A DNA stretch of 63,665 bases, filler included, from Hausera hauseri (lineage: Eukaryota), in NCBI GenBank assembly GCA_046269625.1. It is 10 parts of 10 records of this genome, joined end to end, with 100 filler letters (N's around TTAATTAATTAA, not from the genome) between each part and the next. Parts side by side here need not be neighbours in the genome. Positions count along the whole stretch, not along the records: positions 1 to 16,765 come from JBJURY010255513.1; 9 more parts are not named here. One strand, written 5' to 3'. The first letter of the stretch is position 1; the number at the start of each line of letters is the position of its first letter. Below the pieces are notes generated by a model. It saw only the letters and a program-made list of their open reading frames with translations. It made no database searches and had not been told where the DNA came from. Both the position numbers and the translations under genes were made by a program. Positions 1 to 34,589 of this stretch are shown piece by piece.

Positions 1-117
1 AAACAATATCATTTTACAAATCAAATCGACAAACATCGGAACACAAATATCAATTTACAAAGTTCAGCGTTCTAACATACGCCGGGGCAAAGATTGCGCC
101 TTACCACTGGCGCCAGA

Positions 118-1641
118 TCAGTCATCGTCATCAACATCCACTGAAGTGGGGAGAGGGGCAATGAAAGCTGAAGGTGGCGGGTGTGCACTGAGAGGGAGGT
201 CGAACCAATTAACTGGGGGCGGAATGAAATTTGCAAGGTGTGGGTGAATCTGGGCAGCCGCTGGTGTCCAGATAGTGTCCAATTTGTTAAGACGAGATAA
301 GTGACGGAATAAGTCAAAAACATCATTGAGCATATTGGTGTAATTCAAAGTTCCAATAGAACGAATACGATTTATGCGGCATGCATCACGATAAGAAACA
401 AAACCCCATGGGCCTCTTTGTAATTCGATACTTCCCAGTATATCGTCATAACTTTGAGCAAAGCAGGCTAAGAACTGAGCAACGTCAAAAGTAACTAAGA
501 CACGTCCATAAGTGCATCGAGCCACATGCAACATGACTAGGTTGAAATCTGGAGCCGAGTCGAGCATTTGGAGGGAAATGCCATGAATGTGAGATTCGAC
601 ATTAGACAAACGCACTCGTGGGTTAATGAGTGTGGTATAACGCTGTATTAAGGAGTCGTTCTGAATTTCCCCCAGGCTTACTCCGATACATATTTTAATA
701 GCTCCAGAAAGAGCGGTTGTAAATCCCACGAGGAGGAGATCAGAATCTACTGGTTGTCTAGCTAACCTCATGAAAGAAGAAGAGTTCAATTCAGGAGGTG
801 GCAAGGGTAGTAAAGAACAATCCATCGTACGAGTTGTACCATTAGAGGACTGGGACCAATAATCGAGCCAAGGTGACGGAATAGTGTGTTCAATTTCAAT
901 CATAATAGTTGTGGGTACCGTGACAATTTGTATTTTCGGACCCATGTTATTCCATACCGATCGGGAAAAACGGATTGAGGCATACTGAGGAATAGGAATA
1001 TCAAATTCATCTGTTTGACGTGACCACTGAAACTTGAGTTGACCTTCAGCCACAGACAAAAGAGTATCATGAAGGGTATATTGTAAGTCCGGTTGTTCAA
1101 TCAAATCCTCAACAAAGGTTCGAAGTGGTAGTGTACCTTTGTGTCGAAAGCGGTTGATTATAATTGATCTATTTTGGAGGCTATTACCCTTTAACCAATT
1201 AGGTAATGAGAACGGTGTTTTGTAGCACACGGTAGGGTGGACTAGAGAATTGGCCTTAATGGATTTATATGCATTGTTAGAGCGGGCTATTTCTTGAATT
1301 TCGGATGGAGATTGCATATTAGCGATTTGTATCGGCAACCCGGGAAGACTGCGTAGGTGAAGACTCTGGGCTGTATTATCCACAAAACGTAAGGAGAATT
1401 CATCTGGCTGCGATGTTTCAATGTTAGATGATTGTGCTGGTCTGCCATCGGCGGGTATCTCGTCACCCAGGCCGTATAAGAAATTCACGGCATTGGGTGT
1501 TGCTGTATTGCCCGATGAGGGGATGACTGTTTTTCGCCCACGTAACCAAGTTAAATAAGTTGGCTCGGCCACTGAAGGTAAGGAAGAATAAGAAAAATTC
1601 GCCACAGCCATGCAGCTCGCAGCTGTAGCCAAAAGTAACCG
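118..1641 (-). CDS. ORF4, accessory protein with a degenerate DnaQ/DEDDh exonuclease-like domain; in frame with pol after one TGA
   Basis: 504+ codon ORF. The segment RYTTLINP...IHGISLQMLDSAPDF...GRVLV resembles the DnaQ-family F.TLINP...IHGIT.EML..AP.F...VLVAHN motif. Confidence 0.65.
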   Translation of the reverse strand, partial: RLLLATAASCMAVANFSYSSLPSVAEPTYLTWLRGRKTVIPSSGNTATPNAVNFLYGLGDEIPADGRPAQSSNIETSQPDEFSLRFVDNTAQSLHLRSLPGLPIQIANMQSPSEIQEIARSNNAYKSIKANSLVHPTVCYKTPFSLPNWLKGNSLQNRSIIINRFRHKGTLPLRTFVEDLIEQPDLQYTLHDTLLSVAEGQLKFQWSRQTDEFDIPIPQYASIRFSRSVWNNMGPKIQIVTVPTTIMIEIEHTIPSPWLDYWSQSSNGTTRTMDCSLLPLPPPELNSSSFMRLARQPVDSDLLLVGFTTALSGAIKICIGVSLGEIQNDSLIQRYTTLINPRVRLSNVESHIHGISLQMLDSAPDFNLVMLHVARCTYGRVLVTFDVAQFLACFAQSYDDILGSIELQRGPWGFVSYRDACRINRIRSIGTLNYTNMLNDVFDLFRHLSRLNKLDTIWTPAAAQIHPHLANFIPPPVNWFDLPLSAHPPPSAFIAPLPTSVDVDDDD

Positions 1642-4600
1642 TCATAATATTACCTCATAGTTTAGGTCATAAGTTTGACATCTGGGGTTTCGCATATGAG
1701 TTTTAGTATTCTTACTGTTGATTGTAAGATTTTCATACATACTTCCAATTTCTCTATCTGTATTTGGGGGGTGTTTTTGGAGCCAAAGAATAAGGACAGA
1801 AACTAAGACGACCGATCCTATAACGACTAGAAGAGCAATAATCAAGGAGTATACAACAAAACTGTCAACAGACATTTCCGTTACGGTTTCAATTGAAGGG
1901 GCCATACTTATAACATGGCGAAAACCATGAAGGTTCATTGAATCAGTCAATGTCTTGCACGGTAAGGGAGTCGTTCGTTGAGAAACGGAAGGATACTGTT
2001 TTTGTTCACTTTTGAATACAGGCGTTGCGCGAATTTGAAAATATCGTTGGGTAGTCGACAGGGCAGAGGTTATGATGTTATCACGTAATGACATTAGCAC
2101 AGGAAATTGCAGGATGGCGTTAAGTAACAAAAAATTGTTAAAACCAGGTACAGTAAAGCTTAGTTTCACTTTATCCTTACTGATATTTGATACCATAGTA
2201 CTATAATTGGTTTTAATAAGGATGTTATTGGAGGTGAGGTGCTTTACGTTAATATTAGCTGGAGTAAGGCATAATATTTTCAATGCTCTGTGATGTGACC
2301 CTATTACTACTGTGGTCAGATCCAACTTCTGTCTTATAGCAATCCAAGGGATTGTATAAATTTCCTTTAATTTATTGTCGAATGTTGTTGCTACTCCTTC
2401 CCACAAGTACTCTCCGGATATTTTTAACGGCTTGGCTGGAGCTTGGATCCATTGGAAAGTCAAATATCGATGTGCATAACTTACGTGGCAATTTAGTTGC
2501 AACCATACAGCTTCACTGTAATTAAATTCTTGGTGATCTATTCTAAGGGGTTCAAGGGCCTCCCCAAGCCTACTAATTGAGAGTGGGCAAATTTGTCCTA
2601 TTGAAACAGCCCGTAATTGTAGCCCCCTATGTTTTTCACACCAGAATAGTAAAACTGGGATTTCCCTGTGATATATAAATGTCGGTGCCTTCAGCAATTC
2701 GGAGTTCCATCTACTGATTTGTGTACTATTAACCCATTCTTCAATTACTTGCTGTAAGGCTTCTTCGTCCGAATGTACATAGTAGCAGTGGCCTCCTGGT
2801 GACTTAAACATACAATGGAATCGTTGGTAGCGGTGACGGCCTTGTACCAAAAAGATATTGACCTTAATGTTGTGAAGGAAGTCCGACACAAAGGTATATA
2901 AACGTAATTCATTCCTTTGCTTTGTCCATCCCCATTGAATTTTTATTCCGTGTGATAAAGATAATAAGCATAGCAATAAACAAAACATGTACAATATAGA
3001 AAACTTCGGCACGCCTAGATTTGTTGGAGCTAACTCGTTCCTGGTCTGGTTAATGCCAACATCCTGAGGTATTACCGTAACTAATTGTGTAGGGGCCTTT
3101 TTGCACCGATCTGCTGCTACAGTTATGATTTCGTCTCGCTTCCCGATTTTTTTTCGTATAAAAATGTTCGTTTCTGTAACATTTTCCACTTTATAGGGAC
3201 CTTTCCACGGGCGAGCTAATTTTGGTGACTTACCTTTTTTTACTGCAGGTTCCAAAAGCATCACGAAATCGCCTTGTTTGATTGAGTGAGGACGTGCCTT
3301 TTTATCGTAATTTCCCTTATATGTTTTCTGATAATCAAGTGTTAACGATTGTGCTAAGGCCCATGCTTTCGTCAATCGTTCCTTCAAATAGTTTACATAG
3401 TTCGGTTCATGTTTTGCCAGGGTCTCATCTGGAATTATTTCTAAATCCTTCGGCAGAAGTGGGTCACGCCCATACATAAGGAAGAATGGTGGTTGCTGTG
3501 TTGCCGAGTGTGGCGCAGTTCGCAAGGCGAACATACAAGCTGGGATGAACAAATCCCAGTCATCTTGTCTATCGTCCGTTACCGTAGCCAACATTGATAA
3601 TAATGTGCCATTTAATTTCTCGACCATACCATCACAGCAAGGGTGATAAGCAGCTGTTTTAAGCTTATATATAGAGAACAATCGGCAAACCTCTTGGAAC
3701 ATTTTATTTATAAATTCCGTTCCTTGATCTGTTAATATTTTCCTGGGAGCACCGTACCTGAACACTATTTCCTCGACAAATAATGCTGCAACAGTAAAAG
3801 CTGATTTATCAGCCATTGGAAATGCCTCTGGGAATCTAGTCAAGTAATCTACAAACACCAATATGTATTGGTTCCCGCTCTGCGTCTTCGGTAACGGTCC
3901 GATTATATCCATCGCTGAAAATTCCATGGGACTCGCTGGTGGTGGTATCGGATGCAACGGAGGTTTACATCGGTATCCCCTATTTCGTCTGGTCGCACAG
4001 ATCTTACAGCTTGCACACCATTGTTCGACATCCTTTTGAATTGTGCGCCAGTAATATTTTCGTTTAATTCTACCCAATGTCTTCTTATATGCAGGATGCC
4101 CTGCTAATAATCCGTCATGTTCTTGTTGCATAATGTCGTGTCGCCTAGATTCTGGTATCACTACCAACTGCCGATCATTGTACCAATAGCGTAATAATTC
4201 AGATGCAATAAGGTATTTTGCACCTTGACTTACCAAGTGTTGTATTAGTTCTTTATGAGAGGTATTAATTTTTCGTGTTCGCACAAATTCTCTGATTACT
4301 CTCAATTCCGCATCTTGCTCTTGTTGGTTAATCAGCATCTGAATTTCATCATCTGGGATATGTGCCGTAGTTATCTGGAAGGTCATTAATTGTGATATGT
4401 GTTTTGATTCACATCCTTCCTCCAAGCATTCTAGCTCTCGTTTAGTAGCGGGTCTACGTGACAACCCGTCCGCATTTTTATTATTTCTACCAGGCCGATA
4501 AAACACAGTTAAATTGTATGCTTGCAATTTTAGTTGCCACCGTTTTAGTCTTGAGTACGGATCTTTTACTGTTGAAAACTCTAACGGTGCATGATCTGTG

Positions 4601-6909
4601 AAGACTTTCACTTCATGACCCCATACGTAATATCGGAATTTTTCAATTGCAAAGACAATAGCCAACATTTCCTTTTCTATTACAGCATATTTTTGTTCAG
4701 TTTCCGACAAGGTTCTGCTTGCATACGCAATTACGTATTCCCATTTTGAGTCTGGTGGCATTTGTGATAACACAGCTCCCAATCCAGTGTTACTTGCGTC
4801 TGTAAATATAATGAATGGCAAGGAAAAGTCTGGATATCTGAGTATTGGTGCTGAAGACAACAGTTTCTTTAGTGTGTCAAATGATTCCTGGGTTTCTATC
4901 GTCCATAGGAATTTAGTTCCTTCATGCGTTAACGCAAATAATGGAGCTGCTATTGTACTAAAGTTTGGAACATGTTTTCTATAATAACCACACGTACCCA
5001 AAAACGCGCGTAGCTCTGTTATATTCTTCGGTATAGGCCATGCTGTGATGGCGGACACTTTTTCTGGGTTTACTTCTATGCCCTCAGCTGAAACAATGTG
5101 TCCAAGAAAAACAACTTTCAACATTGCAAATACACATTTCTTAAGTTTCAATTTGAATCCCCAAATTTCTAGTAAATCAAGAATTCTTTCGATATCATCT
5201 AGATGTTCGTCCAAGGTTCGTGAAAATATCACGATATCATCAATATAAACCATTGCGTGCGTACAGTCTAGCAGCATTGCCTCTAAGGCTTCTTGAAACG
5301 TTGAAGGTGCGTTACATAATCCAAAGGGCATTACATTGAACTCATATTGGCCTTTACCGGCGGAAAATGCTGTCTTATATTTATCCTCCTCAGCCAGTGG
5401 TACTTGCCAATACCCACTTTGCATGTCCATCGTTGTAAAATATTTGGAGCCTCGTAGTTTATCAAATATATCTTCCTGTAGTGGGAGTGGATATGAGTTC
5501 TTTACTGTTTGACTATTTAACTGTTGGAAATCCACACAAATTCTGGCTCCCCCGTCCTTTTTTGCTGCTACTACAATTGGCGATAGCCATGAAGAATTAC
5601 TTTTTCTGATGACATCATTTTCTAACATTTGTTGTAATTGACGGTTAACTTCTTCTTGCAGTGCATGTGGGATGCGATATGGTCGTTGCTTAATTGGCCT
5701 TTCATTTAATAAAGGGATGTGATGGACTACGCGGTCGGTTTTACCCAGGTCTGCATCTGATTTAGCAAAGGCCCTTAGGTGCCTTTTAAGAACACACAAC
5801 AGACGTATTTTATCTTTTCCAATTAAATCGGTTTTTATACTGTCCGCCTCTTCGAACGTGCTGATGCATTCTTCGGGCTGAATGATGTGCGATATTGCAC
5901 ATAACTGTCCAATAGTTGTATTTTGTCTGAGTACAACCGCTTGTCTATCGGTATTTACTACTCGAACTGGCAAATAGCCATCTTTAATGGGACTAATACT
6001 GCACGCTGCTTTTATTCCAAGCCTCCTATTTGAGGTTACATCAGGTTCGAATAGCATAGTTCCATTTACCATGTTTGGTGCATAACCTTGTATAATGTGT
6101 TCACTTGTGGGTTCCAATATGATTCCTTCTGGTACAATAACTACTTCCTTCCGGAATTTTACCGCTGGTATCGCGAGCTGTCCTGTAGCTAGGTTCAGAT
6201 ATCGTCCTGTACATTTACGTTGTAAATCAAGTCCCACAATTACATCCTCAACTAACTTATCGAATACTTTGAATGTGTGCTTCAGGCGTTTATTATAAAG
6301 TATTATATAAGTCGTCCAATAACCTACTGGCATTAATTTGTCGCCCCATCCTGATACAGTTGCTCGGTCCTCTTTCTTGGGGGGGGGCAGTTCAGATCTG
6401 TATCTCTCTGGTATACTCGATAATAACACTATTGAATCGTCACAACCAGTATCCACTAGAGCCACAACGTCCCAATCTTCGTGAATGGTTACTAAAGTAT
6501 ATGGCCTTTTCGTGTCCATCTTACTTTTACTAGATCGAAATGCACAGAAGTTACTAAAACTTGGTACTCTTACGTTCATGTTTTCGATTTCTGTATCCGA
6601 ATTTTCCTCATCTTCTGGCTTTATTTCGGTGATAGGTAATCTACTTGGTGTGACGATTTTTATGCCTTTCAACTGTTGTCGTAACTCTCGGTATTTAATA
6701 TATTTAGCTTTGCTACCGCTATATAACGCATCTAATTGATCATCTTTTAACTTCTCCAGACCATCTTTATCTGTTACGGGTAACTTGGGCAACGGTCTTC
6801 CCTGATTCCTAGGTTTGATTTGGTGCAGTCGAGTACAACTATTAATTTTATTGTCTCGTTCCTCACTCCTAGAATTCTTTATCCACCCCCATACATTTTT
6901 TTGGGTATT
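1642..6909 (-). CDS. pol: Pol polyprotein (aspartic protease, RT, RNase H, integrase) with in-frame C-terminal type I membrane protein extension
   Basis: ALVDTG; YIDD; TDAS...EKEMLA...TDH; HHCC; MDIIGP/TDQG/VEKLN; WKGPY. Then the signal-like FSILYMFCLLLCLLSLSHG and TM FVVYSLIIALLVVIGSVVLVSVLILWL. The frame is open from 6909. Confidence 0.93.
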   Translation of the reverse strand, partial: NTQKNVWGWIKNSRSEERDNKINSCTRLHQIKPRNQGRPLPKLPVTDKDGLEKLKDDQLDALYSGSKAKYIKYRELRQQLKGIKIVTPSRLPITEIKPEDEENSDTEIENMNVRVPSFSNFCAFRSSKSKMDTKRPYTLVTIHEDWDVVALVDTGCDDSIVLLSSIPERYRSELPPPKKEDRATVSGWGDKLMPVGYWTTYIILYNKRLKHTFKVFDKLVEDVIVGLDLQRKCTGRYLNLATGQLAIPAVKFRKEVVIVPEGIILEPTSEHIIQGYAPNMVNGTMLFEPDVTSNRRLGIKAACSISPIKDGYLPVRVVNTDRQAVVLRQNTTIGQLCAISHIIQPEECISTFEEADSIKTDLIGKDKIRLLCVLKRHLRAFAKSDADLGKTDRVVHHIPLLNERPIKQRPYRIPHALQEEVNRQLQQMLENDVIRKSNSSWLSPIVVAAKKDGGARICVDFQQLNSQTVKNSYPLPLQEDIFDKLRGSKYFTTMDMQSGYWQVPLAEEDKYKTAFSAGKGQYEFNVMPFGLCNAPSTFQEALEAMLLDCTHAMVYIDDIVIFSRTLDEHLDDIERILDLLEIWGFKLKLKKCVFAMLKVVFLGHIVSAEGIEVNPEKVSAITAWPIPKNITELRAFLGTCGYYRKHVPNFSTIAAPLFALTHEGTKFLWTIETQESFDTLKKLLSSAPILRYPDFSLPFIIFTDASNTGLGAVLSQMPPDSKWEYVIAYASRTLSETEQKYAVIEKEMLAIVFAIEKFRYYVWGHEVKVFTDHAPLEFSTVKDPYSRLKRWQLKLQAYNLTVFYRPGRNNKNADGLSRRPATKRELECLEEGCESKHISQLMTFQITTAHIPDDEIQMLINQQEQDAELRVIREFVRTRKINTSHKELIQHLVSQGAKYLIASELLRYWYNDRQLVVIPESRRHDIMQQEHDGLLAGHPAYKKTLGRIKRKYYWRTIQKDVEQWCASCKICATRRNRGYRCKPPLHPIPPPASPMEFSAMDIIGPLPKTQSGNQYILVFVDYLTRFPEAFPMADKSAFTVAALFVEEIVFRYGAPRKILTDQGTEFINKMFQEVCRLFSIYKLKTAAYHPCCDGMVEKLNGTLLSMLATVTDDRQDDWDLFIPACMFALRTAPHSATQQPPFFLMYGRDPLLPKDLEIIPDETLAKHEPNYVNYLKERLTKAWALAQSLTLDYQKTYKGNYDKKARPHSIKQGDFVMLLEPAVKKGKSPKLARPWKGPYKVENVTETNIFIRKKIGKRDEIITVAADRCKKAPTQLVTVIPQDVGINQTRNELAPTNLGVPKFSILYMFCLLLCLLSLSHGIKIQWGWTKQRNELRLYTFVSDFLHNIKVNIFLVQGRHRYQRFHCMFKSPGGHCYYVHSDEEALQQVIEEWVNSTQISRWNSELLKAPTFIYHREIPVLLFWCEKHRGLQLRAVSIGQICPLSISRLGEALEPLRIDHQEFNYSEAVWLQLNCHVSYAHRYLTFQWIQAPAKPLKISGEYLWEGVATTFDNKLKEIYTIPWIAIRQKLDLTTVVIGSHHRALKILCLTPANINVKHLTSNNILIKTNYSTMVSNISKDKVKLSFTVPGFNNFLLLNAILQFPVLMSLRDNIITSALSTTQRYFQIRATPVFKSEQKQYPSVSQRTTPLPCKTLTDSMNLHGFRHVISMAPSIETVTEMSVDSFVVYSLIIALLVVIGSVVLVSVLILWLQKHPPNTDREIGSMYENLTINSKNTKTHMRNPRCQTYDLNYEVIL

Positions 6910-9530
6910 TTACTACTTTTTATTTTTCGTTGCTTTGACCATTTGGATCCATAAACGCTCACTCTATCTGCTCCTCCACCACCATAATCTTCGTCTCGCT
7001 TTTCTCTCTCCCTCATCCACTGGGCCATAAATGCATGTTGTAAGCATCTGGCTAACGGCGGACAAAGTGCTGTTAGTATTTTCTTGGAACAACCAAAAAG
7101 TTGGAAATTTATAAATCCATTAGTTATTTGTGCGATTATCGTTCGTAGAATTTGCACTATGAAGTAAATAGCTAGAAATCCAGATGACACTTGTCCAAAC
7201 GTCATCATTCCCCCCCATAACTTTTTGAATATCGTCTTAGCTGCCTTGGTAAAATGATCCGGGCTTAAGATGTTTTCCCAGTTTGTTTTTCCATTTCCTG
7301 TATCAGTAACTTTCTGTGTATATGACACTATAAGCCTTTGTAATTGTTTCGGAAACAATAAGTATCTTCTTAATTTTTCCATACTAGCCTCATCGTACAA
7401 ACCTCCTTGAAAAAAATTAACATTATTGTCGAACTTCAATTGTTGTTTTAATGCCAGCATTGTCAGTTTCTTGGGAGTTATTATTTTCGTTCTTGACGGC
7501 ATCGTAACCCAGTGATCATGTCCAATCTTAAACAGTGGTGCAACGTTTCTTATGCACTCCTTTAATACCGTTGGATCTTCGGTTGGTATCAACATTACTC
7601 TCGTTATTGGTGCTACGTATCTTATGTGCCCATTATATTTTACGGCTATTTCATTGGTACATATCGTAGTATCTACCACTGGTACGTCAACTTCCCGACA
7701 CTGAAAGGTTACTAACCCTTCTCCAGTAGTTCTACCGAATACTCCTCGTTGTTTTGTTGGTAGGATTGGGGTATCTATCGAAGGGTTATGGGCTGCTACT
7801 GTGACTCGTAATGCCAATAGATCCTGTGTTATCAAGCAGTCGTTTTGGAGCATTTCCTTGTATATTTTATACTGATTATTGAGCATATAGTGGAACAGAT
7901 AATCCATTTTACCGTTGTAATATACCATTGGTTTAATCTCAGTTGGGTGCACTTGTTTTTGCGCATCTACTACTTCTGTTGTCTTAAGGTATATATCTTC
8001 GACGTTAGTAGAATATACCTCTGTTTTACATTTGATCACTATTTGTTTTCTTATCAATCGTATTGCATCATCGACTGTTGACATTAGGACTGCCGGTGTC
8101 TCAATCTCTGTTAACCGTTGTACGTCCGTATCCTCAGTGTGCGTCGGTGTTGGCTTTGAAAATCTAACACCTTTTGTAATATTGAACGTTACAGCTTTAA
8201 TGAAGGCTAGATTACAGGTTATAACTTCCACGTTCCAGGTAATTATCGAATCTGTGGTAAAACAATACCCATTACCATATACACAGTCCATCCGAATCAT
8301 TAGTTTCAATGTGTCAGCGTCAAACGTAATTTCTTTATCGGTAACTGTCCATGCATACAGATTTTGTACCACTATCCGTGATACTTCATCCACAGTTTGT
8401 CCTGTACATGTCCCGTCTTTACCTACCATACCTCCTTCATTTATTGTTAGGTATTTAATACCATTAACTATTGTTGTTATTTCTACCTTGTCGTTTACCT
8501 TCAACTTACCCAGTCTCACAGCCTCTTTGCAATCGTCCGGCAGCACTCTCTGGGGCTCATCTGGTGACGCTATTAATAGGTTCGTTGAGTGAGTATGGGC
8601 TTTGCCACAATGCCATTTTTTTGTTTGTTTCGTCAATTTACATTCCAACGCTCTTACTCGAAAAAATTTATTTTCCTGATATATATAATATTTTGTTGAT
8701 GGTTCTGTTATCAGTTTGTCCGGTTCGGCATCAGGGCATTTCTCTAGATCAACTAAGGAGTACGTGGCTCCTACTTCTGGTTTATCGCAATCAAATGCCT
8801 TGATCCCCTGCCCTTGAGGTAGACGCCATAAAACTAACATAATTAACAAGACACTCATCATTCCTTCCAAATTCAATCGTGGCGCATTATCCAATATTTC
8901 CTCAAAACCTTTTATTATTTGTAGAAAACCCTTTTCCATGTTATAGGGATTTTTAACGGGCCGACCTTGCTTTTGCTGGTATCCTCGTTCTGCTGGTTGT
9001 GGGATATGATTAAGGTCCAACAATTTGTCCCACCCACCAAATCGCTGTGCTCCCCCGGATAAATTATTCTTTGCAATCTCCATCGCAATCTCGTTATTAT
9101 TTTCAAAGTCCTCTTGCTTTTCACTTGACATCTGTACTCTCATTGCTAAATATACGAGGATTGCGATCATACGGTCCTTCGACACTGCTCCATCCTGCAT
9201 CCATTTTTGAATTATCTCACTATCCTTTAACGGATCGATTGAACTTGGTAATTCTTCCTTCGTTATTGCTTTTTCCATTTGCTGCAATACTTGTTTAAGG
9301 TGCCCTTCAATACCATGATCACCTTCTTTTTCCTCCTCTTGTGACCAAGGTTTGTCATCATCCTTGTATAAGATTTTATAAATTTTATAAAAAGTTTGTT
9401 TAATTTGTCTACTCTCCGGATATAAATTATTCGTCTCGGTCGTACGCAAAGCTCGGGTTAGTGTGTCAACACTAATTTGTTCTATTAGATTTTTTTTGGT
9501 CTCCCTCTTGGTTTCTTTCTTATCTGGGCT
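6879..9530 (-). CDS. env: Envelope glycoprotein, chuvirus/gB-like (class III-type), preceded by a ~200 aa helical leader and internal signal sequence
   Basis: Hydrophobic MMSVLLIMLVLW is followed by GIKAFDC...TYSLVDLEKC, a Cys-rich ectodomain (DGTC, QNDC, FQC, TICTNEI), GGLY, and the TM region GQVSSGFLAIYFIVQILRTII. The frame is open from 9530. Confidence 0.8.
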   Translation of the reverse strand, partial: SPDKKETKRETKKNLIEQISVDTLTRALRTTETNNLYPESRQIKQTFYKIYKILYKDDDKPWSQEEEKEGDHGIEGHLKQVLQQMEKAITKEELPSSIDPLKDSEIIQKWMQDGAVSKDRMIAILVYLAMRVQMSSEKQEDFENNNEIAMEIAKNNLSGGAQRFGGWDKLLDLNHIPQPAERGYQQKQGRPVKNPYNMEKGFLQIIKGFEEILDNAPRLNLEGMMSVLLIMLVLWRLPQGQGIKAFDCDKPEVGATYSLVDLEKCPDAEPDKLITEPSTKYYIYQENKFFRVRALECKLTKQTKKWHCGKAHTHSTNLLIASPDEPQRVLPDDCKEAVRLGKLKVNDKVEITTIVNGIKYLTINEGGMVGKDGTCTGQTVDEVSRIVVQNLYAWTVTDKEITFDADTLKLMIRMDCVYGNGYCFTTDSIITWNVEVITCNLAFIKAVTFNITKGVRFSKPTPTHTEDTDVQRLTEIETPAVLMSTVDDAIRLIRKQIVIKCKTEVYSTNVEDIYLKTTEVVDAQKQVHPTEIKPMVYYNGKMDYLFHYMLNNQYKIYKEMLQNDCLITQDLLALRVTVAAHNPSIDTPILPTKQRGVFGRTTGEGLVTFQCREVDVPVVDTTICTNEIAVKYNGHIRYVAPITRVMLIPTEDPTVLKECIRNVAPLFKIGHDHWVTMPSRTKIITPKKLTMLALKQQLKFDNNVNFFQGGLYDEASMEKLRRYLLFPKQLQRLIVSYTQKVTDTGNGKTNWENILSPDHFTKAAKTIFKKLWGGMMTFGQVSSGFLAIYFIVQILRTIIAQITNGFINFQLFGCSKKILTALCPPLARCLQHAFMAQWMREREKRDEDYGGGGADRVSVYGSKWSKQRKIKSSKIPKKMYGGG

Positions 9531-11983
9531 TCAGTATTTCGTTGCATCGTTCCTTTGGGCAGTACTTCGTCACCTAGTTCTGGTACTTCTGCAAATACCC
9601 ATAACGGTTCCGGTATCTCCTTTAATTGATTAATCGAATTATCTGAACCTGACTTGAGGGGCCGGATGTATTCTGTTGCACCCAATACCTTATTTATTTG
9701 TCGTTCCAATTTGTGTTGATCATCGTCCCTTTTCCTTTGGGATTCCTCAAGATATATTTCAACAATTTCGTTAGGATCCATTCCAGACATAACTCCTAAT
9801 TCCGTCCATTTTATATCTAAGTCATTTACTTGACGCCCCATGAACCTAATAGTAATAACAATATCCTCGTCATTACAACGCCACTGATTTTCAGGTAACA
9901 ATATCTTTAATATCTTCTGTATCGGTGCCTCAGGGTCTATCATAGCTTGTGTTTCAGTGTATACCTTTCCGTCAATTATCCTAAATTGAAGCAAAATGTC
10001 ACCTTCCTCTTTTTGAGGCTTAAAGCCTTCCTTTTGAGCGAATATTTGCAATATCAACCGTGCCATATCTCTTCGCGGAGCTCCATCTGCCGCTTGGGCT
10101 ATGAGATATTTTCTAACTTTGATAATCCGTGTTTTATGCTCGGTTATCCACTCACGGAGTTCATACATTTGATCCATTATTGTTGGTGTTACATCATTGG
10201 TTGGGTCGTTCTCTATTTTCTCGAGTAATGCCCTGAACTGTTCTTCGTGGTAGTCGATTTCATTTGCATTATCTGGCTCTTCAGCAGTTGCTGGAGGCGT
10301 TGTTACTTCATAATCTTCTAGTATCATTATAGGTATATCTTTATCTTTTTCACCTTCCTCCCTTGTTTTGGTTAGTACGTCTGTATTGTTATCGTTTAGC
10401 GGTGCTATCTGATTAAGGTGTAGCGATTTCAATCTTTCAAACTGGGTTCGCATATCATCAAGTTCCAATTTGTGTTGTTTCATTTGAAAAATCATTTCTT
10501 CCCGTGTTAAAGACATATCTTCTGTCTCAGGGGATACAGAGATTATACCTTCCTCCCGGAGACCTTGTGAACTATTAGTATGTGCTATCTGATTAGTCGC
10601 ATCCATTTCTTCATGCATCTGATAGCAATTCGTGTCATCCATTGGATTAAATGATGCACTTGCATCATACACAGAGTGCATCAGTGCCATGCTAGTCGGA
10701 TTAATATTGCCATACCTTATCGGGCACTTCTTTGCCAGATGTCCTGCTTGGCCACAATTGAAACAGTTCTTAGGTTGCGATACACCAAAATTTTGTTGCG
10801 TTGCAGGCTGTATCAAGCCTTGTTGTTGCTGTATGGGACATGTTTTTGCTGTATGTCCCCTTTGGCCACAAGCGTAGCATTGCTTCGGAGATTGTGCATG
10901 TGGCGGAGTGGTAAACGGCATTTGTGCCATATATGGGCATGACTTCGCCAGGTGTCCAAAGTTTTTACAATTATGGCACTGTATAAGCCCTTTTGCATTG
11001 ATATTATCGTGTTCGAGTATGGTTGTTTGGTTTCTGTTACCTGTGGATCGTAATGAATACGGCATAGTTTTGGCAGAACTTCCCATTGGCGCGACCTGCA
11101 ATCGATTGACTGCAGCACCGGTTGACATAGCATTTGATCCTGTTGGTTGTCGTACATTGCCGCCGTCTGTTGGGGACGTTTGTCGTTGTATTGGTGGTTG
11201 ATGTGGACGCACTCCGAGTCCCATATTCCATTGAGGCCTAGTGTATACCATTGGATGCCTCGGTGGTCGCAACCATTGTTGTTGCGGCCATCCTTTTCCA
11301 AGGTCCACGTGTTTGTTCCATGTGTTACGACCTGTTGGTTGGTTAATATTAAATGTTGATGACTGAGTAATTTGCGCATGAGGTATAGACGGTGACGTAT
11401 CTTGATGTAATAAACCTCTCTGTAATATTTGTGACATTTTAACATCGACATTTTCATGAGCTATAGCCTTTTTAACTAATTCACTAAATGTCGTGGCCTC
11501 ACTCTCGATTAAATGTCGCTGTACTTTGGGGTTTCGTAAACCCGTTATGAAGCAATCCACAAGAATAGGCTCTGTTTCAAAAACCTTCTTGTCGTCGGCT
11601 TTTTTATCTCTATTCTCGTTTTCCAGCGCGACTTTATATCGTTTTGCTAAAGCTTGTAAGGCTAGAGCGAACATATTCACGGATTCTCCCGCATGCTGCA
11701 CGCGTGATCGTAAATGTCTTAATCGGGCATTGGACGAAGGGTCCGGATCGACACATTTTCTCAATCTTTCAACTATTTCCTTCCATGGTTTATCCGCCTT
11801 GTCTATCTGAAGGTATGCCTGCAGTGCCACACCTTCCAAGTACCCTACCAATTTCTTTACTTTCTCTTTATCATCCCAGTCGACGCTATCCGCCTGTGCT
11901 TCATACATAGTAATGAAGTCGTCAAAGGCGGCCGGCTCACCGGCATATCTATTAATATTTAAGCCTGCATATAATTGCGCCAT
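9485..11983 (-). CDS. gag: Gag with capsid-like N-terminus, 3 CCHC zinc knuckles, SUMO/ubiquitin-like domain and C-terminal AT-hook
   Basis: Retrotransposon-gag N-terminus (WDDKEKVKKLVGYLEGVAL; QHAGESVNMFALAL). Knuckles CHNCKNFGHLAKSC, CYACGQRGHTAKTC and CFNCGQAGHLAKKC. Ends RKKPRGRPKK. Confidence 0.9.
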   Translation of the reverse strand: MAQLYAGLNINRYAGEPAAFDDFITMYEAQADSVDWDDKEKVKKLVGYLEGVALQAYLQIDKADKPWKEIVERLRKCVDPDPSSNARLRHLRSRVQHAGESVNMFALALQALAKRYKVALENENRDKKADDKKVFETEPILVDCFITGLRNPKVQRHLIESEATTFSELVKKAIAHENVDVKMSQILQRGLLHQDTSPSIPHAQITQSSTFNINQPTGRNTWNKHVDLGKGWPQQQWLRPPRHPMVYTRPQWNMGLGVRPHQPPIQRQTSPTDGGNVRQPTGSNAMSTGAAVNRLQVAPMGSSAKTMPYSLRSTGNRNQTTILEHDNINAKGLIQCHNCKNFGHLAKSCPYMAQMPFTTPPHAQSPKQCYACGQRGHTAKTCPIQQQQGLIQPATQQNFGVSQPKNCFNCGQAGHLAKKCPIRYGNINPTSMALMHSVYDASASFNPMDDTNCYQMHEEMDATNQIAHTNSSQGLREEGIISVSPETEDMSLTREEMIFQMKQHKLELDDMRTQFERLKSLHLNQIAPLNDNNTDVLTKTREEGEKDKDIPIMILEDYEVTTPPATAEEPDNANEIDYHEEQFRALLEKIENDPTNDVTPTIMDQMYELREWITEHKTRIIKVRKYLIAQAADGAPRRDMARLILQIFAQKEGFKPQKEEGDILLQFRIIDGKVYTETQAMIDPEAPIQKILKILLPENQWRCNDEDIVITIRFMGRQVNDLDIKWTELGVMSGMDPNEIVEIYLEESQRKRDDDQHKLERQINKVLGATEYIRPLKSGSDNSINQLKEIPEPLWVFAEVPELGDEVLPKGTMQRNTEAQIRKKPRGRPKKI

Positions 11984-12108
11984 TTAATGTCTGCAATCTC
12001 GTGCTTCACGTCGTATTTCAAAAAGTCAAACAACAAGAATAGTTATATAAAGGGATAAAGATCAAAACAACTGATTTAACAAAAATAATTCAAAAGGAAC
12101 AGATTAGT

Positions 12109-12121
12109 GGCGTGGTCGCCA
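12109..12121 (-). promoter_or_regulatory. Primer binding site, probably tRNA-Arg
   Basis: Minus-strand TGGCGACCACGCC lies between the LTR end and gag. It is complementary to a ...CGUGGUCGCCA tRNA 3' end, as in animal tRNA-Arg(UCG) isodecoders. Confidence 0.7.
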
Positions 12122-12125
12122 GATT

Positions 12126-12680
12126 TGTTGTGGCCCCTTGCCTAATAAAAGCTCTCTGTATTTTACTTGATTATCTATTTATTTATTACTTTGGAGACTT
12201 CCCCAATTAAATGCCCGTCTACCCTACTGTTTATGGTGCCCTCAAGATCACTGGGCTTGTCCCAAAGATCGTGGTTACTTTTAACCCTAACCTCAGTCCC
12301 TCTTTAGTTTTACCTCAGTAGCCACTGAGCTAACTCTCAAAAGCTACACTCGTTAGTTAAAGTAATGGGTCGCAGTAATTATACTCAAATTAAAAAAAAT
12401 AGGTAGTATGGCGGCTACAAACAAACAAAAAAAACAAAAAGAACATACTTTATTACAAGCCAAACCGTTCAAATCATTTTGTCAATAAAGTTTTTTTTGT
12501 CAGTCCCCAGATGCAGTTTATATAATACTGACATCGTGGGATTAAATTACAAAAATCAGCCAATGATTCAACAAATAATGACAGAGTGTCACAAAAATTG
12601 TTACACAAAATCAATCATACACCCGTATTACTACGGCTAATTGTTACACCAGTTGCCGAAAAAGAATACAATTTGTTACA
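12126..12680 (-). repeat. Putative 5' LTR
   Basis: The minus strand ends ...CCACAACA 4 nt before the PBS. It contains TATATAAA (~12516-12523) upstream of AATAAA (~12448-12453). Candidate start TGTAACAA at 12680, with alternatives near 12605 and 12648. No second LTR is available to confirm the boundaries. Confidence 0.55.
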
Positions 12681-14762
12681 TCTGTGTAACCTGATCCTTT
12701 AGCGGCTCAACAATTTTATGCCAAATTTATCAAATTAATCATTATTATTAATTAATCATTACTATATTTAAGTATAAAAAATGTAAACATTCATTGTCTA
12801 ATTGGACACAAAAAGTGGCCCTACGTATTTATCATTTGCAATTTGTACAGCTATACGCGGAACAGTGCTTCAAACGTTAGGGGTTTGTATTTGAAAAATG
12901 AATTTCCAATCGGTTAAAACAGACTTTCAATTGTAAATTTCCGTCGCCATTTCTTTTTGGATTTGAAGTAAAATGTATCAGATGAATAAATAATTTTTGA
13001 ATGAACGAGTAATTATCAACAGTTCCTGTGAAAACCAGAATATATTAAATCCGTTTGGAAACGTAACAGATAATCAATTTAAAAAACTTGACATCCTTTG
13101 TTGTAAATATATAATTGCAAAACAATCCATTTGTAATTTTTAATACATTCGTTTGTTACTCCGTGTGTTTCAAAAAATTTGGAAAAATCTCTGATTGAAA
13201 ACTGTAAACTTTTTATGGCAAGTTCAACTCGTATAGAAAAGATGATTTGGTCGAGAATATGCTCAATGATTTATGTTTTTATGATTTACTAATTTTATGT
13301 TGATGATGAAGATTTTCCTTCTGATGAAGGTGAATATATTGTACAATTTATAGTGATTTGTTCCATTGCAATGGATTTGATTATCACAATTAAGTAAATA
13401 TTAGAAATGTTAAAATTTCGAAATAAATTTTCTGTTAATTATCTCGAGATTTTTGGTATACTTGTGGAATACTTACAGTTAATTTGATTAGTTATAGTTT
13501 TGGAGTATGTTTATATTAAGGAATTGTAAAAAATTGTACAACTTACTGATGTAAGGATATGTAATATTAATTATCTTTTGTATCTTACAAAGTATAGTAG
13601 AAATTTAACGTTAGAATAAATTTGATTTCTACCTTTGTCTTCAACAATTCCTGTGATGAAATTACATATTAAGATCAATATTAGAGAATCACATTTACTC
13701 TAAAATAGATGAAAAAATCATCATTATATTATAATTATAATTTTTTTTAAAATATAAACGCAAAATGAAAAATTTTAATATACAACGACATGGAATCATT
13801 AAAGTAGACTTAGAATTTCAGTGTTTTGTTGTTTCTTTGTAATATTAGTTCTGTTTTACAAAGAACAATCATAATTTGTGACAAACCATAAATGTTCATT
13901 GTGATTTATTAAAAATATAGCCATAATTTTAGCTGCAGTCATTCACTTAAGTTGGGGGGATGGGCTATGTCGGACAAATTCTACCCCACCCAATTAAAGT
14001 CACAATGTTAAGGTCATTTAAAGTCAGGATTAAGGTCATCTTTTTATATGAGCAAAAAGGTTATAAACAAATTCTGAAAATAAGAAAAAACATTCAAATA
14101 AATAAAACGGATGAAATAATCTCCGTCTTGTTCTACTTTATTATCTGGTGTTGAAATAAAGGTAATGCTTAAGGTTTATTTTTAATTAGCTTAGAATTGG
14201 TTTTTGTGCGTTTATTGGTTTCATTGTGCCGTGATTCCTTATTCTGTCGAAATTTTGTAACATACTCAGTGTAGTGTGACGCTCGTCATAAGGATTTTTG
14301 ATTACGGAAGGAAAAAAATATCCATAAGAAGTAGAACGTTTATTTGTTTTTCGTTCTTTGACGTTTCTATTGTGAAAGACGATGCCGAACGCCTTCTTTG
14401 AGCTCTTTGGCCTACCACCGATCTCTGAGATTGTCCTCCGAAGTATACTCGATGGTTGGAGATCCGTTGACTACCTGATGGCCTTAATGACTCAAAGAGT
14501 CAATTATGGCTGCCATCAACCTGATTAAAACAGCTATGAATCCTTATGAGTCAAATATACGCCTGTTTTTACCGCTTGAGTAAAACTCATAGAGACGCTG
14601 ACTGGGTAAGGCCTATGGTTTCTGTGTGGGTTATGTGTCATACAAAGCGGCTGTGCTGCAGATCTCTCGAGACATACTAAAGTCGGAATACAATCGTCCT
14701 GGGATGGTTCGTAGGAATGACATGTTGCGGCATCTTAGCTATTCAGAACTCTGAAGATTGGG

Positions 14763-29006: not shown

Positions 29007-31744
29007 GTAAATATGATTCATGGTCTGTCAAATATTTGTAGTGGTAAATTACGGATTTATTTCTGTTTGTGATAAACTAAGAATAGTTTCATAAAATAGT
29101 TTTTCACATTAATTTTTATAAAATAGTTTTGTGTAATTATTGTATTAGAGTTAATAGAGTAATTCGCATACAATTTCGACAAATGTTCTAGTAATTGTTC
29201 CATTTCAATTGAGAGGTTATTGTGTTGTTAAATAAGAATATTTGGCACACAATGTCTTTATCCATGAATTTAGGGAATTGCATATTTGTAGACTTCTATA
29301 TGATTACGAGGTAATTTGCATATTTTATTTCCGAATAATTCCAGAAATGAAATATATGTAAAACTAAGCTAAATTTAATGTAACCGAGGAAACCATATTT
29401 TCTAATAATACTAGATGAACAGAAAAAAATCAAAGCACGATTAATTGTTACAGATTGAATTTTCGAATCTAATATCAAATTTTGTATGCACCAGATGTCA
29501 TAATTTGTGTTCAATTTCCACTACATTTGTCGTTAGTTTGCTATTATTAATGTCTTCATTTGCGCGATATTAGAACATTGAACAGATTCTGCAACATAAT
29601 TGTCCACAAAAACTGACATTTTTATGAAATAAATTGCCTTTTGGTACTTTGATTCTCAGTAATCGTTACTGATAAAATTAAAGNNNNNNNNNNNNNNNNN
29701 NNNNNNNNNNNNNNNNNNNNNNNNNNNTTAATTAATTAANNNNNNNNNNNNNNNNNNNNNNNNNNNNNNNNNNNNNNNNNNNNGTTCAAGTAACTAGGGA
29801 ACCTCCGTGACCTAGATTATGACAAGATGCACAAAAGTGGCCAGGAGTTGTTGCGCGAAATGTGAAATTTTGTCATCTGCTACCGAGACCATCCACAACT
29901 TATAATGAGAATGGCCATAGACCAGTGAGTCGCTGTCATGTTTCATAGCAAATTATCGCAGCATGCCAAGGTACATGTAAAACCTGTTAATATTCGAAAT
30001 CGTTATTCATTTCTACATGCGCCTGATAATTTTTAAACTCCACACTTAATTAAAAGTAACCCAACAACGCACTGATTCAAACCCACTACTGCCGGCGTAC
30101 AAGTCAATGGTCAGCCACATTGGTTTGCTAACGGCATTCTAATGTGACATTTGAGGAGATTCCATAACATTACGTGAGCACGCACGCAATACAGACACCC
30201 ACACTCATCAGTATTATACACTTTTTCATTAGCCTGAGAAATTTGGGCGGCGTGCCTTCTCACGTAAACTTGTTATCGGGTATGGAAACGTACAGCATAC
30301 TGCGGATACATAATGTGATCATCCATGATGGTCTGTATAGACAGTGTTTCTGACACCGAATGTGGCATTTGCAGAGATGCCAGAACATTACGAGAAAACG
30401 CTCGCAGAATTTATAGTAATGAAATTGTGTATTAATCTGAAAAATTAACAGGTAAGGGGCACTTCTCGTAATGGTTTTGTCGACAACGGAATGGCAAATA
30501 TCTATGAAGTCGGATCAATAACACTGCGTTATCAAGAGTTGGAACAGGGAGCGCCCAGGAGTCGGAGCCAACAGTTTTGTGTCCAACTCGGCAGCCCTAC
30601 TACAGGCATGATTTTTTTTTACCTGTAACTGCGAGGCAGACTAATCCACTCAAATAGCATGATCATGTCCTAGGATAAAGACCCGACAAAGTAGATATCA
30701 CACAGCAATTTATTGGGCATTAAGAAATGCCTCTCTATTCCTCTCGGTCTTTTGTTAGCTTGTAGTTCCCGCCTGTTTTTCATACCTTTTCAATCAGCCT
30801 TCCCCTGTTTTTCGCAAGTCACAGCAGTCGTTTACAAATCTCATACTACATACTGCTGAGCCAAGGCCGTGCAAGGGAGGGGTGACTGAGTTGGTAGGAC
30901 ATGTCGACACTGACCTCCAACTATTGTGTGGGGTCCCATTTATCTTGTAAAAAATCGGTAATGAAAATACTCAATGCGCTGTCTGAAACTGAGCCTACAT
31001 TTTATTATGTTAATTATTAAAATTATCTGTTCATAACCCACAAGAGATATGTTTCGCATTTATTAAAAAACTTGTAATCCATTGGAAACAGACAGCAGAA
31101 CAGCAAAAAGCATTGGCGACAGACGAGTATCCCTAGATAGTCAAGATGGTTGTGGGTTGCTATACCAGCGGGCTGGCGCTACAAATGGGAGGGGAAGGGG
31201 TGGGATTTAGAAAGGATATATCCGGAGATTATGTCGATAAATAAAACCTGTGGGCGAAACTGACAGCGATGGACGAGTGTAAAATACAACCATGCTGCCA
31301 GGGAAGATACGAATATCATAAACTGCTCATTGTCCTAATCTCATTTTGTCTTGCTCGTTGTATGTCAGCTTTTGCTCGTTCATGTTAGATTTTCGTTTGC
31401 GGTCACAATTTCCAAAACATTAACTGCATTTATGTATGACCCCCTTATTATTCTAAAGCTTTTCATGATCAAGAACATTGGTCGTTTTTTTTTTTCCATA
31501 CATTCTTAATGAACACATATCACTGATAATGGTATATTAGAAGAATGTGATTTTGTTAAATCCATGATAACTTACAACGAAATTTTACACACAAAAAACG
31601 ATTACACCCCAGTGTAAATGCAAACATCAATTGGAGTCATAGAGTGTAGTGCTTGCGTGTTATATTGTGACAGTTTTGATTTATGTATACTGAATAATAA
31701 TTTCTTGAATAAATGTTCACTTTATAGATGATCGGCTGATCAAT

Positions 31745-34489
31745 ATGGCGTGTACGAAGACAGTTGCAGACCTAAAGTCTTACCTTCAATCATATCCTGC
31801 AGAATACCCGATCAAGCAAGGGTACATTGCGAGATTACTTTGTGAGGGTAGAAGCAATGAAGAAATTATGCAGCAGTTAAAATATATTGCCGTCGGCAAA
31901 GAGATAGATAAATGTATAAACGATAAATTGGTACGGGCATTTCTGATTCGTTTTGATAGAAAATTGAAACAAAAGAAAGCAAACATCACTTTTAACTGGT
32001 TACAGCTTACAAATTTATTTACTAAAAACTATGATGTACCATTTAAAAAATGTACTGGTTTTCTTTCTTCACAGCTGTTATTAAATCGCACAAAACAAAT
32101 TAAATCCACAACAACTGTATATAAATTGAAAAGGCATTGTTTAAGTTGTATATCAAAAATAAGAACACAGATAAACTTAGCAAAAGATAATGCATATTTA
32201 CGTAAAAAAATAAAAGAAATGAAGAGAAACACCAGTGCATGTAGTAATGAATGCAGATGTGAGAAAGAAATTCTTAAAAAAACAACTAAAAGTGTAGATA
32301 TATTGAAACGCAAATACGTAAATGAAAAAGTAAACAGGACACAATTGATAATATACAAGCATTTGTGGTGTAACGAGAAAGAAGCGAATCGGCTTAAAGA
32401 ACAGTTAGAGAAGTGTAAAACAGACATTTGCGTTACGCAAAAGGAACTACAGGAAGTCAGACAGTTTAATGAGAAAATAAAAATTAATATTAAAGAATTA
32501 AGGCTGAAAGCGAAAAAAAGAAGTTGATGAAATGAAAAAGCAAAATGCGAAAGATATCGCAGCAGCTGTGAAAGAAACAGATTCACAGATAAGTTTTTTA
32601 GAAAATGAAACACAACAAATACGAGAGAAGCTTGATGAAATGACTGAATGTAGTGAAGCAGTGAAAGAAGATTGCAAGACGTATGGATGCGACGTCAGGA
32701 AATGTGTGTACAAATGTCTTGTAAGTCAAGTCAGTGTGGATAAATGCTCCGAAATTATTAAATACGTAGGTGAGTGTTTGTTTCATAGGAAAGTTTCTTG
32801 CTTACCCGTAAAATCTGTCGTTGCGAATATGTCCTACGAGCTGGGTGTTTTGTCAGATATGCTGGTGGGCTACCAGCTGCACAAGATGCAGGGTGTTGCA
32901 ACGTTAGCATGGGACGCTACAAACTTTCAAGGCTCCCATGTTAATGAAGTGCATATAGAAACAGGCTCTGGCAGATTTGTAGTAAACATTGCAGTACTTC
33001 CTGGCGGTACTACTGCCGACTACTTCCACCAGATATGTGAAGCTCTCCTGGCTGTAATCCGCACTTACAGTGATGCATTTAATCAGGCGGAAACAGATGT
33101 CCGAAACATAGTTTTCGGCAAAATAAGAAGCTGCATGACTGACAGAGCAAGAGTTAATCACTCTGTAGTGCAGTTACTCCAGGAAGAGTTTGACGTGAAT
33201 GTGGTGGAGCTAAACTGCCTAGTACACCCGTTAGATGGTCTGGCTTGTGCTGCTAGGAGTATACTCATGACACTTGACACCAAGTGGAGAGTCCAATGCC
33301 AAAAAATACCTGGTACCGAATGTGTTGCAGCTACCCTTATTTACTGCATTTCCAAGCTGAGATACAAGAAAGGAGCGGGCGATCCTGCTGGGTTTAGGAT
33401 ATTTTTAAGACAAAAAAATCTCAGACCAGGCCTAATCCTCAGATATGTTGGAAACAGGATTAATGTCCTGTTTCGCATGGGGGACATCGTATTCCTTCAC
33501 CGAGATCAGAGAATTTGATGTGAATCGACGCCAAAACATATATGGCACTGAACCGAATGTGTTGCAGCTACCCTTATTTACTTTTTTACTTTCATTTCCA
33601 AGCTGAGGTACAAGAAAGGAACAGGTGACCCTACTGGGTTTACTGCATTTTAAGAGAAAAAATCTTAGACCCGGTTGGAAACAGGATTAATGTCCTGTTT
33701 CGCATGGGGGCCATCGTGTTCCTTCACCGAGACAAGTTGCTAGAATATATGAAAACATGTATTCGCACGCAACTGAAGGAGCTCATAATAGAACAGTTGC
33801 AGAACGATCTGGTTATGATCCAGCTCCGAGCTCTTGGGCTTTTTGCAAAAGTTCTGACAGAGCCATGGATGGGTGTGTTCTATGGAAATGCAGCGAAAAG
33901 ATTCACTCTTCAGCTGAACACATACATCCAGACAGGCGTTGACAATCTGAGGAAACTCAGCCACGAGCCAGACCACATATTACACTGCACGGAGGATGTA
34001 TTTGGGCAGCCTTTAAAACAATCGGATGATGTTGCGCGACTGCAAAATGTGCAGCGGAAATATAAGCAACATTTCACATACGCTGTTGCCGAGTTAGCAT
34101 CTTCATTTGAAGATGTGCTTAACAGACAACTGGCGCGTCATCTCAGTGGTGATCTGGCTGTTCCATCCGATGATATGCTGGCGAACACTGCATCAGCTCC
34201 CGCCAACAACATGTATGCGGAGAGGGTGTTAGGCATGACAGATGCTCTTTGGCGACGAGCTCCAAACGCCACCTGTGGCTTCATTAACGGCAAGGTCAAA
34301 GGTAACCTAAATAAGGTAATCGACTGGTTGGAGACATTTTCTGACAATGAGCAAAGAAAACTGGTTGCCTTTGCCACTAAACGCGCGCGTGAAGTGCGCA
34401 AAGCTAATGAAGCCAAAACTCATCTACTCCATAATGAGATGGCTAGGCATCAGAAACAGCATGTGCAGAAGATGGAAAAAACCAGAAAG
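31745..34489 (+). mobile_element. DDE transposase with CxxH motif (hAT/P/MULE/Kolobok-type clade), disrupted by a frameshift and an internal duplication
   Basis: LAWDAT (D1), MTDRA (D2), NCLVHPLD (CxxH), NNMYAERVLG (E). N-terminal coiled coil. Frameshift at the A-run near 32513-32519. Confidence 0.7.
33315..33731 (+). repeat. Diverged tandem duplication (~190 bp) within the transposase
   Basis: 33315-33504 and 33552-33731 share accgaatgtgttgcagctacccttatttac...gttggaaacaggattaatgtcctgtttcgcatgggg. Confidence 0.85.
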
Positions 34490-34589
34490 NNNNNNNNNNN
34501 NNNNNNNNNNNNNNNNNNNNNNNNNNNNNNNNNTTAATTAATTAANNNNNNNNNNNNNNNNNNNNNNNNNNNNNNNNNNNNNNNNNNNN

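Follow-up and report, generated by a model that had tools for sequence, protein, structure and literature searches.

A candidate type II readthrough signal behind the pol gene of a gag-env-pol retrotransposon with a gB-type envelope in Hausera hauseri

The stretch of DNA analyzed here, hereafter the window, comprises 63,665 nucleotides, N spacers included, from the Hausera hauseri assembly GCA_046269625.1 and consists of ten contigs separated by these spacers. The minus strand of the first contig (positions 1-16765) carries a 12.6-kb element with four long open reading frames (ORFs), which, judged by its gene order and domain content, is a Ty3/gypsy retrotransposon of the gag-env-pol type with a gB-type env. 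Its third frame, ORF3 (1755 codons), terminates at a TGA codon (1644-1642, minus strand), behind which the same frame stays open for another 507 codons (1641-118), designated ORF4. The stop is followed by CGG and, past a short spacer, by a hairpin, and we think it fairly probable that these together constitute a programmed type II readthrough signal, with or without splicing alongside. Readthrough is the best single explanation of the pattern. The signal itself is real, and its function in recoding is probable; the element that carries it is of unusual complexity. The features on which the argument turns are the following.

1639-1644, minus strand: TGA-CGG, a type II readthrough hexamer, read from the sequence and the same in the public runs X1 (main contig), X2 and X3
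1601-1629, minus strand: stem-loop 12 nt past the stop, found by folding; its 5' arm contains a weaker acceptor-like AG (1624-1623) and its 3' side an ATG (1611)
1559-1665, minus strand: nucleotide-conservation island common to diverged relatives, found in 5/5 diverged X1 contigs on 1450-1760
118-1641, minus strand: ORF4, 507 codons, defined by its open frame and homology
1570-1595, minus strand: pyrimidine tract and acceptor-like AG (1573-1572), in phase 1 of ORF4, ranking 2nd of 784 AG sites
11935-11943, minus strand: site resembling a splice donor, one nucleotide beyond the end of gag codon 14 (phase 1), ranking 2nd of 623 GT sites

The open frame behind the stop is hardly fortuitous, as the other frames each contain 19-39 stops and the probability of such a length by chance is about 1e-11. 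The context of the stop is TTA-TGA-CGG, with an A at position -1. CGG is a rare codon in the element (17 of 3977 codons, and 2 of the 51 Arg codons in the 3' ORFs), and the type II hexamer is found at 4 of the 613 stop triplets in any frame; the chance of the CGG context is 1-2%, and that of a shared frame open as far as the acceptor about 0.1. The original prediction, which had proposed readthrough here, was correct in all its coordinates for the stop and the roughly 507 open codons, and the sequence confirms the TGA-CGG context. Host-wide reassignment of UGA to a sense codon was considered and rejected: the 3977 codons contain 60 TGG and no in-frame TGA.

The arrangement agrees with known viral signals. 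The Venezuelan equine encephalitis virus (VEEV) and Colorado tick fever virus sites are UGA CGG with structure from +12 (PMC13517186), and type II spacers are given as 7-9 nt (PMC3159437) or as a structure start at +9 to +16 (PMC13517186). The earlier statement that UGA-CGG/CUA with a 3' stem-loop is a viral leaky-stop signal fits both sources. In the present element the spacer is 12 nt (1641-1630), and the predicted 8-bp stem (1629-1622/1601-1608) holds, all eight pairs being Watson-Crick or G-U. The core stem has pair probabilities of 0.88-1.0 in 6/6 folding contexts; in the inner stem, two G-C pairs reach 0.93 and U1621-G1609 reaches 0.49. The strength of the hairpin is modest: relative to dinucleotide shuffles it has a z-score of about -2 (8 of 200 as strong), and it belongs to the top 0.2% of 45-nt windows, being the fourth-best peak in the element. 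An Rfam search returned nothing credible.

Further evidence comes from sequencing runs. The element is present in three public runs, none recorded as RNA: X1 (share 0.98), which is the likely source of the window, and X2 and X3, which are shallow (depth 2-6) and 98-100% identical to it. X3 shows no differences over 1540-1714, and X2 shows three over 1560-1724, none of them listed at the stop. Given that the stop stands in X2 and X3 too, it is not an assembly error. X2 and X3 are labelled as two other organisms, and the occurrence in them of a near-identical element at such depth could represent carry-over, a parasite or prey, or recent transfer.

The diverged copies in X1 are more informative about local conservation. 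Six X1 records cover 1450-1760, one from the main family and five diverged, and all five diverged contigs align (at least 80%) solely within 1559-1665, over 107/562, 72/760, 70/303, 41/208 and 35/48 nt of their lengths; the 208-nt contig apparently aligns again near 1469. When the 562-nt contig was inspected by eye, 98 of the 107 island positions matched, against 15/30 and 20/30 in the 30-letter flanks, a contrast that is biased by where alignments end. The differences on its 3' side fall at third, first and second positions of ORF4 codons in the numbers 5, 4 and 1. The island spans the stop and the hairpin, and in three of the four long diverged contigs it stops short of the 1573 acceptor. 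One diverged contig has, by eye, a 3-nt offset upstream of the acceptor AG that retains the frame. Being drawn from alignment extent, the conservation signal is qualitative; it suggests that the island marks a conserved signal at the RNA level. The 3' readthrough elements of alphaviruses were found through the same pattern of local nucleotide conservation (PMC3159437). An overlapping 60-codon ORF, opening in another frame at an ATG that overlaps the stop (1645), was considered as the cause of the island and judged unlikely; it is closed early in one diverged contig (by eye).

Natural variation in the hairpin is sparse. A change at 1603 in two contigs converts a G-U to an A-U pair, so that the pair is kept, and is silent in ORF4; the X2 change at 1621 also retains pairing. 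Of the four listed changes, one is neutral, one stabilizes the stem, and those at 1629 and 1630, applied singly, weaken it. The change at 1629 breaks its pair unless the partner, which is not among the listed positions, changed too. As a background, 1630-1601 allows 90 single changes, of which 60 would weaken the stem, 16 would be neutral and 14 would stabilize it; two non-weakening natural changes out of four are thus no significant excess.

Several of these observations, and some further ones, weigh against readthrough. The strength of the stem is not significant by the stricter control, as 233 of 2000 synonymous-codon shuffles fold equally well. The two weakening changes count in the same direction, and no two-sided (compensatory) change was seen among the four listed natural changes; of the conservation and covariation that had been proposed as a check, the first is represented by the island in 5/5 diverged contigs and the second by the one-sided, pair-keeping changes at 1603 and 1621. 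The difference tables, as we read them, leave out about 30 nt at aligned ends, and this hides the stop codon itself in the diverged contigs. Being near-identical and shallow, the X2 and X3 copies tell little about evolution or selection. A contig of depth 4 has, by eye, a 1-nt offset between the hairpin and the acceptor. Without compensation elsewhere, this offset would put ORF4 out of frame for readthrough; the contig may represent a dead copy. The 48-nt contig (depth 30) fits 1631-1665 and not the 5' stem arm, and its match may be due to chance. Diverged contigs also align elsewhere in the element, for example at 2636-3100 and 311-448, in a view covering 8 of 49 X1 records. Conservation 5' of the stop may be an effect of the Tyr motif in the tail encoded there. 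Finally, the acceptor AG is kept behind a pyrimidine-rich tract in two diverged contigs (by eye), one of which has a 1-nt offset upstream, a point that speaks for splicing.

Indeed, ORF4 might be expressed solely from a spliced subgenomic mRNA joining gag codon 15 (donor 11940) to the acceptor at 1573-1572, a possibility that the original prediction had overlooked, although its readthrough claim is still the best reading in view of the local conservation and the stop in X2 and X3. The product of splicing alone would be soluble, with 14 Gag residues followed by ORF4 from codon 24; the hairpin would then regulate splicing by hiding the weaker AG at 1624, and the stop would be an ordinary terminator. 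With generic matrices, the donor and acceptor achieve their high ranks within the whole 12.6 kb, their phases match to give an in-frame join, and the acceptor lies 70 nt past the stop. An alternative 8-bp pairing of 1641-1634 with 1573-1566, predicted at a probability of about 0.5 in two of five contexts and about 0 in three, would mask the acceptor. Splicing would also free ORF4 from reliance on upstream frameshifts, and it has a precedent in Drosophila gypsy, whose env is made from a spliced transcript (PMC8096092), splicing being how gypsy usually produces its last ORF. However, comparison with synonymous shuffles shows the donor equalled in 443 and the acceptor in 400 of 5000, neither being significant. 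Phase 1 is the commonest phase, shared by about half of the top-ranked sites, and 9 of the 20 top acceptors lie in the pyrimidine-rich ORF4. Moreover, splicing alone leaves three coincidences, namely the shared open frame, the CGG context and an island centred on the stop and hairpin. We regard splicing as the sole route to ORF4 as rather doubtful. Readthrough alone, in turn, would mean that two splice sites stand in suitable places by coincidence. Neither route excludes the other, and both may operate.

A perfect splice-donor consensus, the best in the element, is also present in the integrase tail (3228-3236), in phase with the 1573 acceptor. A splice from this donor (3233) to 1571 would be in frame and remove the membrane-protein cassette described below. 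We read this site as a by-product of coding, for it falls in the C-terminal Lys-Gly-Lys-Ser motif of the integrase and its use would delete the region that we take to be GPY/F.

The remaining explanations carry less weight. ORF4 could have its own start at the ATG at 1611. Ribosomes might reach it by reinitiating past the stop, or the mRNA might be a short transcript begun internally or one that uses the AG at 1624 as its splice acceptor. This ATG exists, as had been noted, is in frame and would yield 497 residues, and the 1624 acceptor ranks 9th of 784; yet the codon is buried in the hairpin in a weak context with no purine at -3, and the CGG is left unexplained. The ATG at 1645 that overlaps the stop is of no help here, as it lies in the other frame. 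Initiation within ORF4 is accordingly improbable in our view. Alternatively, ORF3 and ORF4 may once have formed a single frame that a nonsense change to TGA interrupted, the change then spreading with the family. This would account for the shared frame, and the unseen codon of the diverged relatives leaves room for it. Nevertheless, ORF4 is intact, the stop is common to the three runs, and a chance nonsense change predicts no local nucleotide conservation; no fused ORF3-ORF4 protein was found by a word-based search of proteins of 965-3072 residues, a search that gave no relative at all. We hold this to be very improbable. The least probable account, to which we give almost no credence, is that the UGA encodes selenocysteine and the hairpin serves to redefine it. 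SEPN1 does have a stem close to its UGA (PMC3159437), but the position of the UGA here is a linker and not an active site, and Rfam gave no selenocysteine insertion sequence match in 1-13000, an interval that includes only 117 nt of the 3' end.

We return to readthrough and to the element in which it would operate, whose other features are as follows.

12122-12680, minus strand: candidate 5' long terminal repeat (LTR), limits uncertain, with TG at 12680 and CA at 12127-12126 directly before the primer site
12111-12121, minus strand: candidate tRNA primer-binding site, TGG-led, from the sequence
9485-11983, minus strand: ORF1, Gag, 832 residues with three CCHC zinc knuckles, from the ORF and domain search
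9490-9497, minus strand: run of eight A where ORF1 and ORF2 overlap, a candidate site for -1 frameshifting (A_AAA_AAA), from the sequence
6879-9530, minus strand: ORF2, 883 codons, with a 220-residue linker, a signal peptide, a gB/chuvirus-type fusion glycoprotein and a transmembrane segment, from PF24664 and hydropathy
6896-6902, minus strand: run of seven A where ORF2 and ORF3 overlap, a candidate though non-canonical site for -1 frameshifting (C_AAA_AAA), from the sequence
3007-6909, minus strand: ORF3 core with protease, reverse transcriptase, RNase H and integrase, from the domain search
1645-3006, minus strand: ORF3 extension, a predicted second type I membrane protein, from hydropathy and sequons

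The domain order of Pol in ORF3, protease, reverse transcriptase, RNase H and integrase, is that of Ty3/gypsy elements. The env between gag and pol matches PF24664 (E 4.9e-68) and has a signal peptide and a transmembrane segment. The primer site presumably matches the 3' end of tRNA-Arg. The window contains no second LTR copy; the contig stops 117 nt past ORF4, with the 3' LTR beyond its end. The ORFs overlap in the -1 frame, ORF1 and ORF2 by 46 nt and ORF2 and ORF3 by 31 nt, and the A-run in each short overlap suggests tandem frameshifts; folding gave only weak structure downstream of the two runs. A scan of metagenome contigs returned five distant pol fragments without downstream sequence, the best Pol relatives being 37-47% identical, and no match to the TGA-CGG stop motif; scans of viral contigs gave no match to the element.

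A decayed relative lies on the minus strand of the fifth contig (34590-38621), with a gB-type env (tblastn E 1e-11). In this copy a gag-end motif, the linker and env share one reading frame with scattered stops, so the -1 shift between gag and ORF2 of the main element is not universal.

ORF3 continues past the integrase without a stop into 1645-3006. In ORF3 numbering, hydropathy places a signal peptide at residues 1302-1321 and a 27-residue hydrophobic transmembrane segment at 1684-1710, enclosing an ectodomain of about 360 residues with four N-glycosylation sequons and leaving a 45-residue tail with Tyr-x-x-hydrophobic motifs. The extension also carries a Met of its own (ATG 2988), within the signal peptide. 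Profile searches found no family match for it, and the Atlas leads, all below 0.9, were membrane and immunoglobulin-like proteins. Word-based protein searches gave no relative of ORF3 residues 1150-1755, of ORF4, or, among short proteins, of the extension and ORF4. Based on these features, the extension is predicted to be a type I membrane glycoprotein; it may be the partner that provides attachment for the gB-type fusogen.

As judged from profile matches and homology, ORF4 is a real gene that ends in an exonuclease-like domain.

277-744, minus strand: DEDDh (DnaQ-like) exonuclease-fold domain, from profile matches and a phage alignment

Residues of about 300-455 match NF004719 (E 1.4e-7), TIGR00573 (E 2.9e-5), PF00929 (E 0.003) and many DnaQ-type models, all below curated cut-offs, and the Atlas leads for the domain stand at 0.80. 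A four-sequence alignment with three phage DnaQ-type proteins, at about 20% identity, indicates that three of the five catalytic residues are replaced (the ExoI Asp by Gly306, the ExoI Glu by Thr308 and the His by Thr435), while two catalytic Asp residues, Asp386 and Asp440, are kept. The domain is therefore likely to be inactive. Residues 55-186 have one homologue, P0001 (E 3.8e-11, 32% identity), a 181-residue fragment without context, in a HMMER search of 1.84 billion proteins; the N-terminal half has no AlkB/2-oxoglutarate oxygenase profile match. Two single-sequence structure models had a predicted local distance difference test score of 30 and were unusable for the fold.

Taken together, these features allow a mechanism to be proposed. 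The second signal peptide, after the integrase, would thread ORF3 through the membrane of the endoplasmic reticulum to produce a type I membrane protein. Most ribosomes would terminate at the TGA and leave the 45-residue cytosolic tail, whereas a minority would read through; if alphaviruses are a guide, this minority is likely to be between a few and twenty percent (PMC3159437). The full product of about 3,950 residues that had been envisaged is right in its arithmetic (3,954 codons); it depends, however, on two putative -1 frameshifts, and cleavage at the two signal peptides is likely. After such processing, the readthrough form would have about 940 residues, and ORF4 would face the cytosol or the inside of the particle, judging solely by the predicted topology. 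There, ORF4 might bind nucleic acid without cutting it, and so anchor genome RNA or the capsid at the membrane or protect RNA against host defences; a spliced mRNA may add a soluble form. In its most complete version, one mRNA with two -1 frameshifts and an alphavirus-type readthrough would encode Gag, the fusogen of gB type, Pol and, with a short or a long tail, a second envelope protein. The long tail would be an inactive DEDDh nuclease holding RNA at the membrane, and a splice would release the same domain in soluble form. We offer this whole scheme tentatively, as possible rather than probable.

Comparison with known systems likens the signal to type II viral sites. The sites of VEEV (alphavirus nsP3-nsP4), Colorado tick fever virus segment 9, and tobra-, peclu-, furo- and pomoviruses (PMC3159437, PMC13517186) likewise have UGA-CGG, an A at -1, a stem-loop past a short spacer and raised 3' conservation. 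In contrast, the present, predicted site belongs to an LTR retrotransposon, has a compact 29-nt hairpin instead of an extended stem of 78-177 nt, and would append an accessory protein to the tail of a membrane protein rather than a polymerase. The GAG-ENV-POL errantiviruses with a herpes simplex virus gB-type Env from nematodes, bryozoans and flatworms (PMC13524379) share the Ty3/gypsy pol and the gB-type env between gag and pol; here, they are joined by a second predicted membrane protein, fused downstream of the integrase, and by a fourth ORF that an in-frame stop sets apart from it. The terms read-through, frameshift and accessory do not occur in the main text of that article. By this comparison, the element probably belongs to an invertebrate animal.

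Among retroelements, the nearest precedent is the pol-stop-env arrangement of soybean SIRE1, cited second-hand through PMC2829016; SIRE1, unlike the gypsy element here, is a plant Ty1/copia element whose downstream ORF is an env-like gene. Gammaretroviruses at gag-pol (PMC5009743) and Candida Tca2 at gag-UGA-pol (PMC2194720) also pass an in-frame stop, but this stop lies between gag and pol, whereas here it follows pol and the membrane protein. The bdelloid rotifer elements Juno and Vesta (PMC5408684) are likewise LTR retrotransposons in which the 3' part carries an additional ORF belonging to the DEDD exonuclease superfamily. Their ORF3 is of the DEDDy type with intact catalytic residues and replaces env, while ORF4 here is DnaQ/DEDDh-like, has lost three of five residues, coexists with env and stands behind a readthrough-type stop. 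Our literature search, which mostly left subscription papers outside, found no description of post-pol readthrough in animal gypsy elements; the element or its extra ORFs may stand in the supplements of PMC13524379.

Type II readthrough is known in RNA viruses and some cellular genes, and retroelement readthrough at gag-pol and in SIRE1 pol-env. If our reading is true, the present element would represent a new use of readthrough, in which it determines how much of an envelope-side protein has the long tail and how much the short one. Also relevant here is a question raised for gB-type errantiviruses, namely how they enter cells without the partner glycoproteins that herpesviruses require (PMC13524379); the second membrane protein bears on it. 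Surveys that require three uninterrupted ORFs would miss such accessory genes.

The window holds other features of interest. Other contigs carry divergent eukaryotic genes, among them PRP38, UBX/FAF1 and the primase large subunit, and the ten may derive from more than one organism. On the plus strand, 31709-34537 contains three ORFs in a row that show a duplication of 59-70 nt, have no Pfam match and resemble a broken DNA transposase-like gene. A broken pol fragment of another gypsy-like element is present at 38936-40534 (RVT_1, E 1e-31).

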